A stretch of 64,000 bases of DNA from Escherichia coli (GCF_003334305.1 NZ_QOWS01000011.1); one strand, 5' to 3'; positions 30,487 through 40,227 are shown, numbered from the stretch's first letter. Numbers and translations are program-made. The notes: generated by a model not told the origin, from the sequence alone.

Positions 30487-30656
30487 GATAGTGCTCCACA
30501 AAGGTTATATTTGTTGCTGTGGCGTCACTATAATTTGTTATTTTATTATTTGCAAAAGGTAAAATATAAACTTCAATTATTAAAAATACGAATGGGAATA
30601 AAACGCATTACCGCTATTTATTTAATCAGCGAAGATCCCCTCGCTGATTAAAACAT

Positions 30657-30980
30657 TTAGAGAAAGACAGGGAAGGCGGAATGATGGCACTGATATGACA
30701 AAGTGAATTCCGTATTCAAACATAAGGAACCCGCAAAAAGGCTACAGTTGCCTACTGGCTGACCAAAGGGGATAGCGTGGGTATAGCCTTCCTGCTGGCA
30801 TGCGCGATCGGCGATCCCGCGACTGACATAACGATCGGTACGGGCATGCTGCAAAAAAGCCTGATCATAAACCAACCGAACAATACCTGTTGCCGTGTCA
30901 ACTTCGCCCACATGAGCCTGGCGAGTAACTGTGCACCCCGCCAGCGTTATTAATGAAAGAGTCAGAATCAGAAGTCTCAT
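30657..30980 (-). CDS. yecR: lipoprotein YecR (107 aa)
   Basis: Signal peptide with lipobox LAGC (MRLLILTLSLITLAGC). Confidence 0.8.
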   Translation of the reverse strand: MRLLILTLSLITLAGCTVTRQAHVGEVDTATGIVRLVYDQAFLQHARTDRYVSRGIADRACQQEGYTHAIPFGQPVGNCSLFAGSLCLNTEFTLSYQCHHSAFPVFL

Positions 30981-31144
30981 GGTCCAGCCAGAAGAGTAAA
31001 AGAAAGCACTATTTTACGCGTTACAGCGCTGCGACAATGGCCGGAAAAGACGCCTGGCAGGCGCTATTTCTTGCCATCTGTAGGTGTCAGAAATGGGGGT
31101 GCTGCTTTTTGATTATCATTTTTATAACATTAAAAGGGTATTTA

Positions 31145-31160
31145 TGTGATTTGCATCACA
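31145..31160. promoter_or_regulatory. CRP binding site (perfect TGTGA-N6-TCACA) upstream of azuC
   Basis: TGTGATTTGCATCACA about 85 bp upstream of the azuC ATG; a second degenerate half-site pair lies at 31173-31188. Confidence 0.55.
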
Positions 31161-31242
31161 TAAAGATTGATTTTTGTGATGGTTGTCATATTATAAGTGC
31201 AAAGACAATAACACCTGCATAACAAATAGTCGGAGTGCCGCG

Positions 31243-31329
31243 ATGAAACTGCGCAAGATCCTGAAAAGTATGTTCAATAACTATTGCAAGACGTTCAAAG
31301 ACGTACCACCAGGCAATATGTTCCGATAA
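31243..31329 (+). CDS. azuC: 28 aa small membrane-associated protein AzuC (within the azuCR / IsrB dual-function RNA)
   Basis: ATG at 31243 encodes MKLRKILKSMFNNYCKTFKDVPPGNMFR then TAA; followed immediately by an intrinsic terminator. Confidence 0.75.
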   Translation: MKLRKILKSMFNNYCKTFKDVPPGNMFR

Positions 31330-31334
31330 CAAAA

Positions 31335-31357
31335 AACCTGCTCCGGCAGGTTTTTTT
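31335..31357 (+). terminator. rho-independent terminator of azuC/azuR transcript
   Basis: AACCTGC-TCCG-GCAGGTT followed by T7. Confidence 0.75.
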
Positions 31358-31443
31358 GTGTCCTGGTGACGGTGGATGTGACTATCGCTGAAGATGTGAA
31401 GCCGCTACTATAACGGCTTTCAAAATGCTATCAGGAGTTTACG

Positions 31444-31695
31444 ATGTCCCAGCCGCTGAATGCCGATCAGGAACTGGTTTCTGATGTGGTTGCTTGCCAG
31501 TTGGTTATCAAACAAATTCTCGACGTTCTGGATGTAATCGCGCCCGTTGAAGTTCGCGAAAAAATGTCCAGCCAGCTGAAGAATATCGACTTTACTCACC
31601 ATCCCGCCGCCGCAGACCCGGTCACCATGCGGGCAATCCAAAAAGCCATCGCGCTGATTGAACTCAAGTTTACCCCACAGGGCGAATCCCATTAA
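31444..31695 (+). CDS. yecJ: DUF2766-family protein YecJ (83 aa)
   Basis: ORF translation [31 protein letters not shown]... Confidence 0.8.
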
Positions 31696-31773
31696 AAAAC
31701 CGCATCTTCAAAAAGATGAGGCAGCGGTTTCTCAAAAACTTCATCGGCGCAATTGCATTAGCGCCGATGACGA

Positions 31774-32277
31774 TCAATGCAGCTGATGCGACACGACATT
31801 CAGAACATGTTGGTCAGTCTGCACAGGGCACATACCAGCAAGTTTCGCACTGCGCACTTCATCAAGAATGGTTTGCAGCAACAGGCCATCATGCTGCTGT
31901 TCTTTTTCCAGATCGCGCAGGAAATTGACGGTTGAATCATCATTCAGTTCTTTAGCTTCATCGGCTAACTGTGCCAGCGTGCTTGAACGTTGCTCGTATT
32001 CTTCCATCGTTTTTTGGAAAAGTTCTTCCAGTGAGTTCAGTTTTTCACCGGGAACATCAATGGCTTTAACGATGGGAGTAGCGCCGACACTCTTCATAAA
32101 GTTAAACATGCGCATCATTTGGGTCACGTTACTCTGTGCCTGGGCGCGAAGGAAAGTGGCGGTGCCGTTCAGACTCTGTTCAGAACACCAGTTACTCAGG
32201 TGAAGGTAGAGATTGGATGCGTAAAACTCGCGGTTCATTTGAGAGTTGAGTTTGAGAAGCATTCCAGCGGTTGCCAT
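31774..32277 (-). CDS. ftnB: ferritin-like protein FtnB (167 aa)
   Basis: Ferritin fold paralogous to FtnA in ORF translation. Confidence 0.85.
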
Positions 32278-33072
32278 ACCTAATATCCTTATATCCAGAA
32301 GTGGAGAGGTGCAAGATAAATCAAAACACCATAATTACTGTTTGCAGAATAATTCCTTTCTGCCGGTCCGAAATGTGATCGTGGAGTCAATTCTGACGAT
32401 GATCTGAAATAAGAATAACGTCTGAACGGGTATAAGAAAATGCTTAAATCATCAAGTTTATATATTTTTACATTTCATTGATGAAATCAATGTAACTGCA
32501 ATGAATTTTAATGATAGTGCTTTTTGTATCTTGTTGATATTAATCGGTGAATTTGAATTCATGATGAAGCAATGATTTTTTAAAACGTTTTTTCATTTTT
32601 GCGATATGGCTCTCAGTATACGTGTTCTGTTAATTAATGAACACGGTGATAATTAATGGCGAAATGAATGACGCGCTTTTTCCACATCTTTGAGTTGCGG
32701 TTATTACACCATTGCAAAAACTCAACGCCAGGTAATGTGGCCTATTGACTGGTTAAAAAAAAGACATCCAGCTGGGTACCAAAGACAACAAGGATTTCCA
32801 GGCTAATCTTATGGATTAATCTGCTGTGCACTAGACAATTTGTCAGACAAATTGGCTTTTCCTTATGTCTTTTCCCGCTAAATTTATGCACGTTCTCACT
32901 GTAATTCTGCGATGTGATATTGCTCTCCTATGGAGAATTAATTTCTCGCTAAAACTATGTCAACACAGTCACTTATCTTTTAGTTAAAAGGTAATGCTTT
33001 GTTTTCCGATTAATTTAACGAATGTCATTCGTTTTTGCCCTACACAAAACGACACTAAAGCTGGAGAGAACC

Positions 33073-34062
33073 ATGCACAAATTTACTAAAGCCCTGGCAG
33101 CCATTGGTCTGGCAGCCGTTATGTCACAATCCGCTATGGCGGAGAACCTGAAGCTCGGTTTCCTGGTGAAGCAACCGGAAGAGCCGTGGTTCCAGACCGA
33201 ATGGAAGTTTGCCGATAAAGCCGGGAAGGATTTAGGGTTTGAGGTTATTAAGATTGCCGTGCCGGATGGCGAAAAAACATTGAACGCGATCGACAGCCTG
33301 GCTGCCAGTGGCGCAAAAGGTTTCGTTATTTGTACTCCGGACCCCAAACTCGGCTCTGCCATCGTCGCGAAAGCGCGTGGCTACGATATGAAAGTCATTG
33401 CCGTGGATGACCAGTTTGTTAACGCCAAAGGTAAGCCAATGGATACCGTTCCGCTGGTGATGATGGCGGCGACTAAAATTGGCGAACGTCAGGGTCAGGA
33501 ACTGTATAAAGAGATGCAGAAACGTGGCTGGGATGTCAAAGAAAGCGCGGTGATGGCGATTACCGCCAACGAACTGGATACGGCACGTCGCCGTACAACG
33601 GGTTCTATGGATGCGCTGAAAGCGGCCGGATTCCCGGAAAAACAAATTTATCAGGTACCTACCAAATCTAACGACATTCCGGGGGCATTTGACGCTGCCA
33701 ACTCAATGCTGGTTCAACATCCGGAAGTTAAACATTGGCTGATCGTCGGTATGAACGACAGCACCGTGCTGGGCGGCGTACGCGCGACGGAAGGTCAGGG
33801 CTTTAAAGCTGCCGATATCATCGGCATTGGCATTAACGGTGTGGATGCGGTGAGCGAACTGTCTAAAGCACAGGCAACCGGCTTCTACGGTTCCCTGCTG
33901 CCAAGCCCGGACGTACATGGCTATAAATCCAGCGAAATGCTTTACAACTGGGTAGCAAAAGACGTTGAACCGCCAAAATTTACCGAAGTTACCGACGTGG
34001 TGCTGATCACGCGTGACAACTTTAAAGAAGAACTGGAGAAAAAAGGTTTAGGCGGTAAGTAA
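33073..34062 (+). CDS. araF: L-arabinose ABC transporter periplasmic binding protein AraF (329 aa)
   Basis: ATG at 33073 gives MHKFTKALAAIGLAAVMSQSAMA signal peptide followed by ENLKLGFLVKQPEEPWFQ... Confidence 0.9.
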   Translation: MHKFTKALAAIGLAAVMSQSAMAENLKLGFLVKQPEEPWFQTEWKFADKAGKDLGFEVIKIAVPDGEKTLNAIDSLAASGAKGFVICTPDPKLGSAIVAKARGYDMKVIAVDDQFVNAKGKPMDTVPLVMMAATKIGERQGQELYKEMQKRGWDVKESAVMAITANELDTARRRTTGSMDALKAAGFPEKQIYQVPTKSNDIPGAFDAANSMLVQHPEVKHWLIVGMNDSTVLGGVRATEGQGFKAADIIGIGINGVDAVSELSKAQATGFYGSLLPSPDVHGYKSSEMLYNWVAKDVEPPKFTEVTDVVLITRDNFKEELEKKGLGGK

Positions 34063-34077
34063 TTTGCCGGAAAAATT

Positions 34078-34100
34078 CCCCTCTGCATGATGCAGAGGGG
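34078..34100 (+). other. perfect 11 bp-stem palindrome in the araF-araG intercistronic region (mRNA stem-loop)
   Basis: CCCCTCTGCAT-G-ATGCAGAGGGG; no downstream T-run, so more likely a stability or processing element than a terminator. Confidence 0.5.
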
Positions 34101-34131
34101 GTGTGAACGACCAGTGATTCACGGAGACGTT

Positions 34132-35646
34132 ATGCAACAGTCTACCCCGTATCTCTCATTTCGCGGCATCGGTAAAACGTTTCCCGGCGTTAAGGCGCTG
34201 ACGGATATTAGTTTTGACTGCTATGCCGGTCAGGTTCATGCGTTGATGGGTGAAAATGGCGCAGGAAAATCAACTCTCTTAAAAATCCTCAGCGGCAACT
34301 ATGCGCCAACCACGGGTTCTGTAGTGATTAATGGGCAGGAAATGTCCTTTTCCGACACGACCGCAGCACTTAACGCGGGTGTGGCGATTATTTACCAGGA
34401 ACTGCATCTCGTGCCGGAAATGACCGTCGCGGAAAACATCTATCTCGGCCAGCTGCCGCATAAAGGCGGCATTGTGAATCGCTCATTGCTGAATTATGAG
34501 GCGGGTTTACAACTTAAACATCTTGGTATGGATATTGACCCGGACACGCCGCTGAAATATCTCTCCATTGGTCAGTGGCAGATGGTTGAAATCGCCAAGG
34601 CGCTGGCGCGTAACGCTAAAATTATCGCCTTTGATGAGCCAACCAGCTCCCTTTCTGCCCGCGAAATCGACAATCTTTTCCGCGTTATTCGTGAACTGCG
34701 AAAAGAGGGGCGGGTGATCTTATACGTTTCTCACCGTATGGAAGAAATATTTGCCCTCAGCGATGCCATCACTGTCTTTAAAGATGGACGTTATGTCAAA
34801 ACCTTTACCGATATGCAGCAGGTTGACCACGACGCGCTGGTGCAGGCGATGGTCGGGCGCGACATTGGCGATATCTACGGCTGGCAACCTCGTAGTTATG
34901 GCGAGGAGCGCCTGCGTCTTGATGCTGTGAAAGCACCAGGCGTGCGTACGCCAATAAGTCTGGCGGTTCGCAGTGGTGAAATTGTTGGGCTGTTTGGTCT
35001 GGTAGGGGCGGGGCGTAGCGAATTAATGAAAGGCTTGTTTGGCGGGACGCAAATCACCGCCGGTCAGGTTTATATCGACCAACAGCCGATCGATATTCGT
35101 AAACCGAGCCACGCCATTGCCGCAGGCATGATGCTCTGCCCGGAAGATCGCAAAGCGGAAGGCATTATTCCCGTGCACTCCGTTCGCGACAATATCAACA
35201 TCAGTGCCAGACGTAAACATGTGCTCGGCGGTTGTGTAATCAACAACGGTTGGGAAGAAAACAATGCCGATCACCACATTCGTTCGCTCAACATCAAAAC
35301 GCCGGGCGCTGAGCAACTGATCATGAATCTCTCAGGCGGAAATCAGCAAAAAGCCATTCTGGGCCGCTGGTTATCGGAAGAGATGAAGGTCATTTTGCTG
35401 GATGAACCTACGCGCGGCATTGATGTTGGTGCTAAGCATGAAATTTACAACGTGATTTATGCGCTGGCGGCGCAGGGTGTGGCGGTGCTGTTTGCCTCCA
35501 GCGACTTACCTGAAGTCCTCGGCGTTGCCGACCGGATTGTGGTGATGCGGGAAGGTGAAATCGCCGGTGAATTGTTACACGAGCAGGCAGATGAGCGTCA
35601 GGCACTGAGCCTTGCGATGCCTAAAGTCAGCCAGGCAGTTGCCTGA
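34132..35646 (+). CDS. araG: L-arabinose ABC transporter ATP-binding protein AraG (504 aa, duplicated ABC domains)
   Basis: Two Walker A motifs (GENGAGKST; GLVGAGRS) and ABC signatures. Confidence 0.9.
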
Positions 35647-39448: not shown

Positions 39449-39950
39449 AACCTGTTCCTTATTCTGTGAACTTCAGGTGACATTAAAGCTTTACTCCTAA
39501 TGGAGAAACGACGCAATCCCAACTCGGTCAAACAGGTAAATATTAGTCTGATTATTAGTAAAGACAATTAATCAATCACTCCAGGTGATCATATAATTTC
39601 AAATGTAATTATAAGAAAATAGTGTACTGATTCTCCGCATTAAACAAGTGGTTAATATATGTAAAACATTTCATTAACATTAAGTTGATTGTTGCCTTTC
39701 TTTGTATTTAATTAGTTTGTTGTGCGGTAAGTGTCTGTTTAAAAATAGCTTATCTGGTATTGCATGAAAGTGATTATTTATAGCAGATGATTATTTACGG
39801 TGAGTTATTTTAACTGTGCGCAACATCCCATTTCGATTATTCCTGTTTCATTTTTGCTTGCTAGCGTAGCGAAAAACTTTTTAACAGATTGAAATACACC
39901 CAAAACAAAAGTATGACTTATACATTTATGTTAAGTAATTGAGTGTTTTG

Positions 39951-39966
39951 TGTGATCTGCATCACA
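39951..39966. promoter_or_regulatory. CRP binding site in the flhDC promoter region
   Basis: Perfect TGTGATCTGCATCACA about 270 bp upstream of the flhD ATG, consistent with a class I CRP site upstream of a long 5' UTR. Confidence 0.65.
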
Positions 39967-40227
39967 CATTATTGAAAATCGCAGCCCCCCTCCGTTGTAT
40001 GTGCGTGTAGTGACGAGTACAGTTGCGTCGATTTAGGAAAAATCTTAGATAAGTGTAAAGACCCATTTCTATTTGTAAGGACATATTAAACCAAAAAGGT
40101 GGTTCTGCTTATTGCAGCTTATCGCAACTATTCTAATGCTAATTATTTTTTACCGGGGCTTCCCGGCGACATCACGGGGTGCGGTGAAACCGCATAAAAA
40201 TAAAGTTGGTTATTCTGGGTGGGAATA

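Follow-up and report, generated by a model that had tools for sequence, protein, structure and literature searches.

The 795-bp non-coding gap between ftnB and araF in Escherichia coli is likely made up of two unremarkable control regions plus what is left of a DJ-1-family gene that was lost along with its promoter. On the araF side, ~290 bp would form the araFGH control region, in which a CRP site and a pair of AraC dimer sites accompany the core promoter and the leader. On the ftnB side, ~200-300 bp would hold a CsrA-bound leader, a promoter with a CpxR box, and an FNR box inside AT-rich DNA. The Escherichia lineage would have lost a DJ-1/PfpI gene together with ~215 bp of upstream DNA, and the ~200-bp middle may be a poorly constrained remnant, diverged beyond recognition and with no detectable function. 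The gap would be long because these parts add up. Its functional portions would then be two promoters already described, and the remainder a known, everyday outcome of gene loss.

The analyzed window is a stretch of 64,000 nt from Escherichia coli, and all coordinates are counted from its first letter. The gap (32278-33072) is the longest among the 70 annotated intergenic gaps of the window, for which the median is 55 bp and the second longest, between flhD and uspC, is 779 bp. It is bordered by the following genes:

31774-32277, minus strand: ftnB, left border of the gap
33073-34062, plus strand: araF, right border of the gap

The first-pass annotation had described a long gap free of ORFs of 60 codons or more, and this was borne out: no such ORF lies inside 32278-33072, the longest one wholly within it encodes 49 aa (32742-32891, minus strand), and a TTG-start ORF of 53 aa overlaps the ftnB start. 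The GC content is 35.0% in the gap vs 50.7% in the window, and it falls to 25.4% in the 181 bp at 32440-32620, with 0.08% of the 181-bp windows being as low or lower. The equivalent gap of K-12 measures 796 bp (1986129-1986924), and positions 32585-32785 correspond to approximately 1986416-1986617 in that genome. The gap is free of annotated features in K-12 RefSeq, a record that includes small proteins and sRNAs (e.g., azuC/azuR nearby), and in strain A7, where the gap sequence is 100% identical. The gap is present in 5418/5426 complete E. coli genomes.

Homology boundaries were obtained by blastn and by a DNA profile of the full intergenic region (nhmmer), using a comparison set of 38 ftnB loci from other species. 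The conservation was found to be split: both control regions are conserved across genera, and the ~200 bp in the middle have no match outside Escherichia. The "several hundred" unexplained base pairs of the first-pass annotation shrink to these ~200 bp (32585-32785), the remainder being the two conserved control regions.

On the araF side, ~290 bp (from 33072 to ~32786) are conserved across at least eight genera. In a 13-taxon alignment, the strong conservation blocks begin at 32784 and coincide with matches to the AraC and CRP consensus; the within-species comparison included 12 E. coli genomes. The features of this side are:

32789-32826, minus strand: distal AraC dimer site, half-sites 32789-32805 and 32810-32826, 17 bp each
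32833-32857: conserved palindrome AGACAATTTGTCAGACAAATTGGCT, an inverted repeat with 12-nt arms, between the AraC sites
32864-32901, minus strand: proximal AraC dimer site, half-sites 32864-32880 and 32885-32901
32913-32928: CRP site TGTGATATTGCTCTCC, consensus match 8/10
32951-32956, plus strand: predicted araF -10 element TAAAAC, placed from the conservation pattern
from near 32962 (predicted start) to 33072, plus strand: araF leader of ~110 nt, with an invariant Shine-Dalgarno sequence GCTGGAGAG

The distal AraC half-sites (TAGCCTGGAAATCCTTG and CAGCAGATTAATCCATA) match the consensus at 8/10 and 9/10, and their block is conserved in the 13 taxa. The proximal ones (TAGCGGGAAAAGACATA and CAGTGAGAACGTGCATA) match at 8/10 and 7/10, are conserved across genera, and are invariant in 12/12 E. 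coli genomes. Both pairs are direct repeats of the TAGC-N7-TCCATA type, spaced 21 bp start to start. In the CRP site, TGTGAT and GCTCTC are unchanged across genera (13 taxa) and in 12/12 E. coli genomes. The expectation that the gap holds the araFGH control region is therefore confirmed by two AraC half-site pairs at 21-bp spacing and a conserved CRP-like site. The coordinates of the two motifs originally pointed out need small corrections: TATGGA lies at 32930-32935 (initially about 32929), and TGTGA lies at 32913-32917, not at about 32923. A second CRP-like match (32958-32973) is not conserved and is probably due to chance.

In the 13-taxon alignment, conservation extends through GCTAAAACT (32949-32957) and then falls. 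From this pattern we infer that the -10 element occupies 32951-32956 and that transcription begins near 32962, which would give a leader of ~110 nt; leader diversity is π = 0.0073 among the 12 E. coli genomes. Relative to this predicted start, the CRP site would lie at about -41.5, a position suggestive of class II spacing. At the araFGH promoter, CAP sits between AraC and RNA polymerase, and the predicted layout agrees with this placement. The araFGH promoter of E. coli K-12 is reportedly dependent on both AraC and CRP. The region described here resembles it in its position 5' of araF, in having two AraC dimer sites whose half-sites are 21 bp apart, and in the placement of the CRP site, which has the proximal AraC site on one side and the core promoter on the other; no difference was found at the sequence level.

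Specialists may be interested in the palindrome at 32833-32857, which looks like an operator within the araFGH regulatory DNA. The core AATTTGTCnGACAAATT is retained in 12/13 genera, the central base alone varies in the 12 E. coli genomes, and the TTGTCNGACAA portion has a single occurrence in the window. The palindrome resembles, with one mismatch per half-site, a GntR/FadR-type operator (ATTGGTnnnACCAAT), and it is not known to be part of the published description of the araFGH promoter. In the leader, an in-frame ATG lies 17 codons 5' of the annotated araF start (33022-33072), and the resulting extension is open in several genera (...TLKLE(R/L)T-MHKF). This N-terminal extension probably just reflects the conservation of the leader DNA, because it is the annotated start that carries the conserved Shine-Dalgarno sequence.

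On the ftnB side, ~200-300 bp are conserved across genera: blastn gives a firm match at 32282-32481, and the nhmmer profile extends the homology to ~32584, with high compositional bias. The control region of ftnB (yecI), a Cpx regulon member, is described as having sigmaE and sigma70 promoters, FNR binding, and a CsrA-repressed leader. The predicted ftnB control region was indeed located in the gap, with its leader, promoter zone, CpxR box, and FNR box:

32278-32404, minus strand: ftnB 5' leader of ~127 nt, with four GGA motifs (CsrA sites)
32303 and 32346, minus strand: published RNA 3' ends in the ftnB leader (Term-seq; K-12 1986899 and 1986856)
32405-32480, minus strand: ftnB core promoter zone, π = 0.0066 in 12 E. 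coli genomes
32412-32417, minus strand: candidate ftnB -10 element TATTCT, from a motif scan
32457-32471, minus strand: CpxR box GTAAAAATATATAAA, consensus match 9/10, at about -60
32534-32547: distal FNR-type box TTGATATTAATCGG, match to TTGAT-N4-ATCAA 8/10 in the window strain, at about -135
32440-32620: AT-rich block, 25% GC

The candidate -10 element places the predicted ftnB start near 32404, giving the leader of ~127 nt, which is nearly invariant among the 12 E. coli genomes (π = 0.0013). CsrA footprints have been reported on ftnB RNA from +1 to +152, with four GGA motifs (PMC6686035), and the four GGA motifs of the leader, all within 110 nt of the ftnB ATG, match this footprint. The GTAAA-N5-GTAAA of the CpxR box is kept in Citrobacter, Salmonella, Silvania, Lelliottia, and Leclercia, and this conserved box fits the membership of ftnB in the Cpx regulon (PMC7657598, PMC2731931). 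The FNR box fits the reported in vivo binding of FNR upstream of ftnB (PMC2690998) at a site described as unusually far upstream (PMC3212961).

The CpxR box, the FNR box, and the four GGA motifs thus lie where the literature predicts. One difference from the known ftnB region is in the FNR box, which is 8/10 in the window strain vs perfect in K-12. Indeed, the perfect version (TTGATATTAATCAA, 10/10) occurs in 4/12 sampled E. coli, K-12 included, and the remaining ones, among which the window strain, have one or two mismatches. Anaerobic induction of ftnB might differ among strains, a variation of possible interest to specialists. The sigmaE consensus GGAACTT-N16/17-TCAAA gave nothing convincing where expected: its sole matches (9/12) are at implausible positions.

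The transcription evidence comes from one Term-seq data set. The tables of Adams et al. (10.1101/2020.07.18.207399) list RNA 3' ends 26 and 69 nt upstream of the ftnB ORF and none elsewhere in the gap. The 3' end at 32346 comes after a hairpin (GCAGAAAGGAAUUAUUCUGC) with a GGA in its loop. Both ends may reflect attenuation or RNA processing, or they may mark a short RNA that derives from the leader and is tied to CsrA binding. Because 3' ends occur solely in the ftnB leader in these data, the only short RNAs in the gap are ftnB leader fragments.

Between the two control regions lies the segment that distinguishes Escherichia:

32585-32785: Escherichia-only spacer of ~200 bp, with a 124-bp core at 32660-32783

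Neither blastn nor nhmmer found a counterpart of this segment outside Escherichia. Even within the genus, the identity of the core to other Escherichia species is 37-44%, equal to the shuffled null. For the gap flanks, identity between Escherichia species is 81-86% vs 59-70% at the 4-fold sites of ftnB and araF. The core comes in at least three versions that cannot be aligned with one another, found respectively in E. coli with MOD1, in the cryptic clades, and in E. albertii. The core nevertheless measures 118-131 bp in all Escherichia lineages despite its unalignable sequence, a constancy not obviously expected of junk. Inversion was considered as a cause of the low identity and rejected, as no minus-strand matches were found. 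An origin from a repeat or a mobile element was also rejected: the segment is single-copy in 5413/5426 E. coli genomes, it has no phage matches, its internal repeats are trivial, and the "plasmid" matches are to records as large as chromosomes (393 kb to 4.9 Mb).

Nucleotide diversity among 12 E. coli genomes is 0.036-0.040 from 32481 to 32783 (0.037 in the core), vs 0.001-0.007 in the leaders and the ftnB promoter, 0.022 in the AraC/CRP zone, and 0.057-0.100 at 4-fold sites. On this profile, the middle is by far the least constrained part of the gap. The ratio of core diversity to 4-fold diversity is about 0.4-0.65; the core may be under some weak constraint, although the lower mutability of AT-rich DNA could account for this deficit. 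Three short islands of the middle (CATGATGA, GGTGATAATTAA, and AAAAAGAAGAC) are common to all Escherichia, as is an island at 32600-32615 (TGCGAT...GCTCTCA), which is CRP-like (8/10).

The comparison with other genera suggests where the middle comes from. In 8 Escherichia loci, araF and ftnB are 789-800 bp apart; the spacing grows to 998-1435 bp in Citrobacter, Enterobacter, Lelliottia, Leclercia, Silvania, and Huaxiibacter. The extra DNA of the other genera is a 185-codon gene of the DJ-1/PfpI family, co-directional with araF and divergent from ftnB. In 26 loci, representing at least seven genera, an intact copy stands where Escherichia has the spacer; its carriers include both Salmonella and Citrobacter on one side and Enterobacter, Lelliottia, Leclercia, Silvania, and Huaxiibacter on the other. 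The encoded protein is TIGR01383-like and matches PDB 4k2h (Salmonella STM1931) at E=3e-100; it is an ortholog of that protein. Escherichia retains columns 1 to ~290 and ~1092 to 1394 of the intergenic profile, and lacks the gene-bearing columns 320-877 and the ~215 bp upstream of the gene.

The gene is also decaying elsewhere: it is frameshifted in a Leclercia locus (L037), fragmented in two Citrobacter loci (L015 and L039), and reduced to two faint fragments in a further locus (L008). In the 8 Escherichia loci, unlike the DJ-1-bearing ones, no remnant was detectable (tblastn E>0.2; six-frame hmmsearch E>5; nothing by nhmmer). The GC content of the core is 0.42, compared with 0.40-0.42 in the decaying remnants (L008, L039, and L015), 0.54-0.61 in the intact gene, and 0.32-0.37 in intergenic DNA, as would be expected of former coding DNA that is relaxing toward a high AT content. 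A fast early divergence of the core might have the same cause.

Thus, relatives carry an intact syntenic gene and the Escherichia segment has relaxed constraint, with no residual similarity to DJ-1. Because this similarity is lacking in all 8 Escherichia loci, the middle is best read as a gene-loss scar and not as a recognizable pseudogene. Judged from position only, the spacer would derive from the lost DJ-1 gene region. Loss rather than gain would be the parsimonious direction in Escherichia, because the gene is found at the same site both in Salmonella/Citrobacter and in the Enterobacter-like genera.

The main rival to gene loss is a lineage-specific role of the middle, which we consider improbable. 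The segment would be a spacer or insulator of fixed length, or a young gene for an sRNA or small protein expressed in untried conditions, and such a role would account for a core length held at 118-131 bp despite sequence turnover, for the small islands common to all Escherichia, and for an E. coli diversity under that of 4-fold sites. A hidden small protein or sRNA had also been proposed in the first-pass annotation, and neither was supported by our data. None of the ORFs within 32458-32806 stays intact in other Escherichia, and K-12 already has changes in three of them. The ORFs that persist, 32865-32987 (40 codons) in the araF promoter and 32994-33089 (31 codons) in the araF leader, were rejected as genes: substitutions by codon position (36/32/32 and 31/31/24, respectively) show no third-position excess, and the positions of the two ORFs coincide with transcription-factor sites or with the araF leader. 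No entry for the gap is present in the searchable small-ORF tables (Stringer et al. and the Enterobacteriaceae intergenic smORF tables, of incomplete coverage). As regards an sRNA, an Rfam scan of 30500-34500 gave no match in the gap, a consensus promoter scan of the gap gave 0 promoter-like sites, and the folding of the middle shows no excess stability compared with shuffles (z +0.49 and -0.52). Two weak terminator-like hairpins were found in the gap, just one of which is in the middle segment, and the confinement of Term-seq 3' ends to the ftnB leader leaves the middle with none. Moreover, one natural isolate carries an IS5 insertion in the segment. A specific form of this idea is that the ~120-130-bp spacer acts as a neutral-sequence insulator between the AraC/CRP-looped araFGH region and the AT-rich, possibly H-NS-coated ftnB region, or as a very young lineage-specific transcript; we hold this to be decidedly improbable.

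Two further readings, that the gene was inserted elsewhere and that the AT-rich DNA is foreign, are both unlikely. If the short Escherichia arrangement were ancestral and the DJ-1-like gene had been inserted in other lineages, the lack of any gene trace in Escherichia would be expected. However, the gene has the same position and orientation in Salmonella/Citrobacter, sister to Escherichia, and in five Enterobacter-side genera, and parsimony strongly favors one loss over several insertions at one site. The independent decay in four lineages indicates that loss is the ongoing direction, and Escherichia also lacks ~215 bp of ancestral upstream DNA, making insertion extremely improbable. The other reading, a horizontally acquired insert silenced by H-NS, draws on the 25% GC of the AT-rich block, the lowest in the window, and on the H-NS binding reported at Salmonella ftnB (PMC3212961). 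H-NS binding to the E. coli block is plausible; for the H-NS high-affinity motif, the gap matches no better than its AT content predicts. The block is not anonymous DNA: it covers the CpxR box (32457-32471) and the FNR box (32534-32547), and it is partly homologous to, and syntenic with, the AT-rich ftnB upstream DNA of other genera. Because the corresponding DJ-1-ftnB intergenic DNA in those genera also has 32-37% GC, the block is an ancestral piece of the ftnB upstream region and not a foreign insert. Given also the single-copy state of the sequence, with the phage and plasmid searches described above, a foreign origin is very unlikely overall, and for 32440-32584 it is largely refuted.

With gene loss as the preferred reading, an ~800-bp empty gap in a model genome would need no hidden gene, part of it being the remnant of a lost DJ-1-family gene. 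Orthologs of the PDB 4k2h type occupy the position of the Escherichia spacer in the 26 related loci. The closest parallel within the window is the gap between flhD and uspC (39449-40227, 779 bp), a second very long non-coding gap, which holds the flhDC regulatory region. That gap owes its length to many regulatory inputs and a long leader; the ftnB-araF gap differs in that about a quarter of it appears to be a non-functional remnant. Upstream of ftnA, Fe-Fur reportedly reverses H-NS silencing over a long AT-rich tract. The ftnB locus is similar in being a ferritin-family gene with a long AT-rich upstream tract, and in the H-NS binding reported for Salmonella ftnB, and it differs in that no Fur box with at least 13/19 matches is present in the ftnB-araF gap.

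The ancestral divergent pairing of a DJ-1-family gene with ftnB may be of interest to specialists as well. PDB 3fse is a solved protein in which a DJ-1/ThiJ/PfpI-like domain is fused with a ferritin-like domain, and this fusion echoes the pairing of the DJ-1-like gene with the ferritin-like ftnB. A motif (TTGCGCCAGATCATTTTT) located ~90-100 nt upstream of the start of the DJ-1-like gene is conserved across genera (L009-L038), and in the Enterobacter-like group TGTGATCCAG is found near it. The E. coli island TTTTGCGATATGGCTCTCA (32596-32620) bears a weak resemblance to this motif that is not significant by nhmmer and is no more than a lead. In Salmonella enterica subsp. diarizonae/arizonae, the DJ-1-like gene is kept intact (L010, ~1547-2330; L013) and araFGH is lost; these loci still show parts of the araF control region, together with the opening codons of araF and an araH 3' fragment.

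Some variants were also observed in and around the locus. In strain A7, the annotation treats yedK (window 8663-9331) as a pseudogene because of an internal stop, and its sequence there is identical to that of the window. The natural isolate with IS5 inserted mid-gap is strain MLI104K1 (L043). Strain Ecol_542 (L044) has an IS1-associated deletion that begins ~200 bp upstream of ftnB, removes araFGH and otsB, and ends within otsA, and in APEC IMT5155 (L046) araF is frameshifted.
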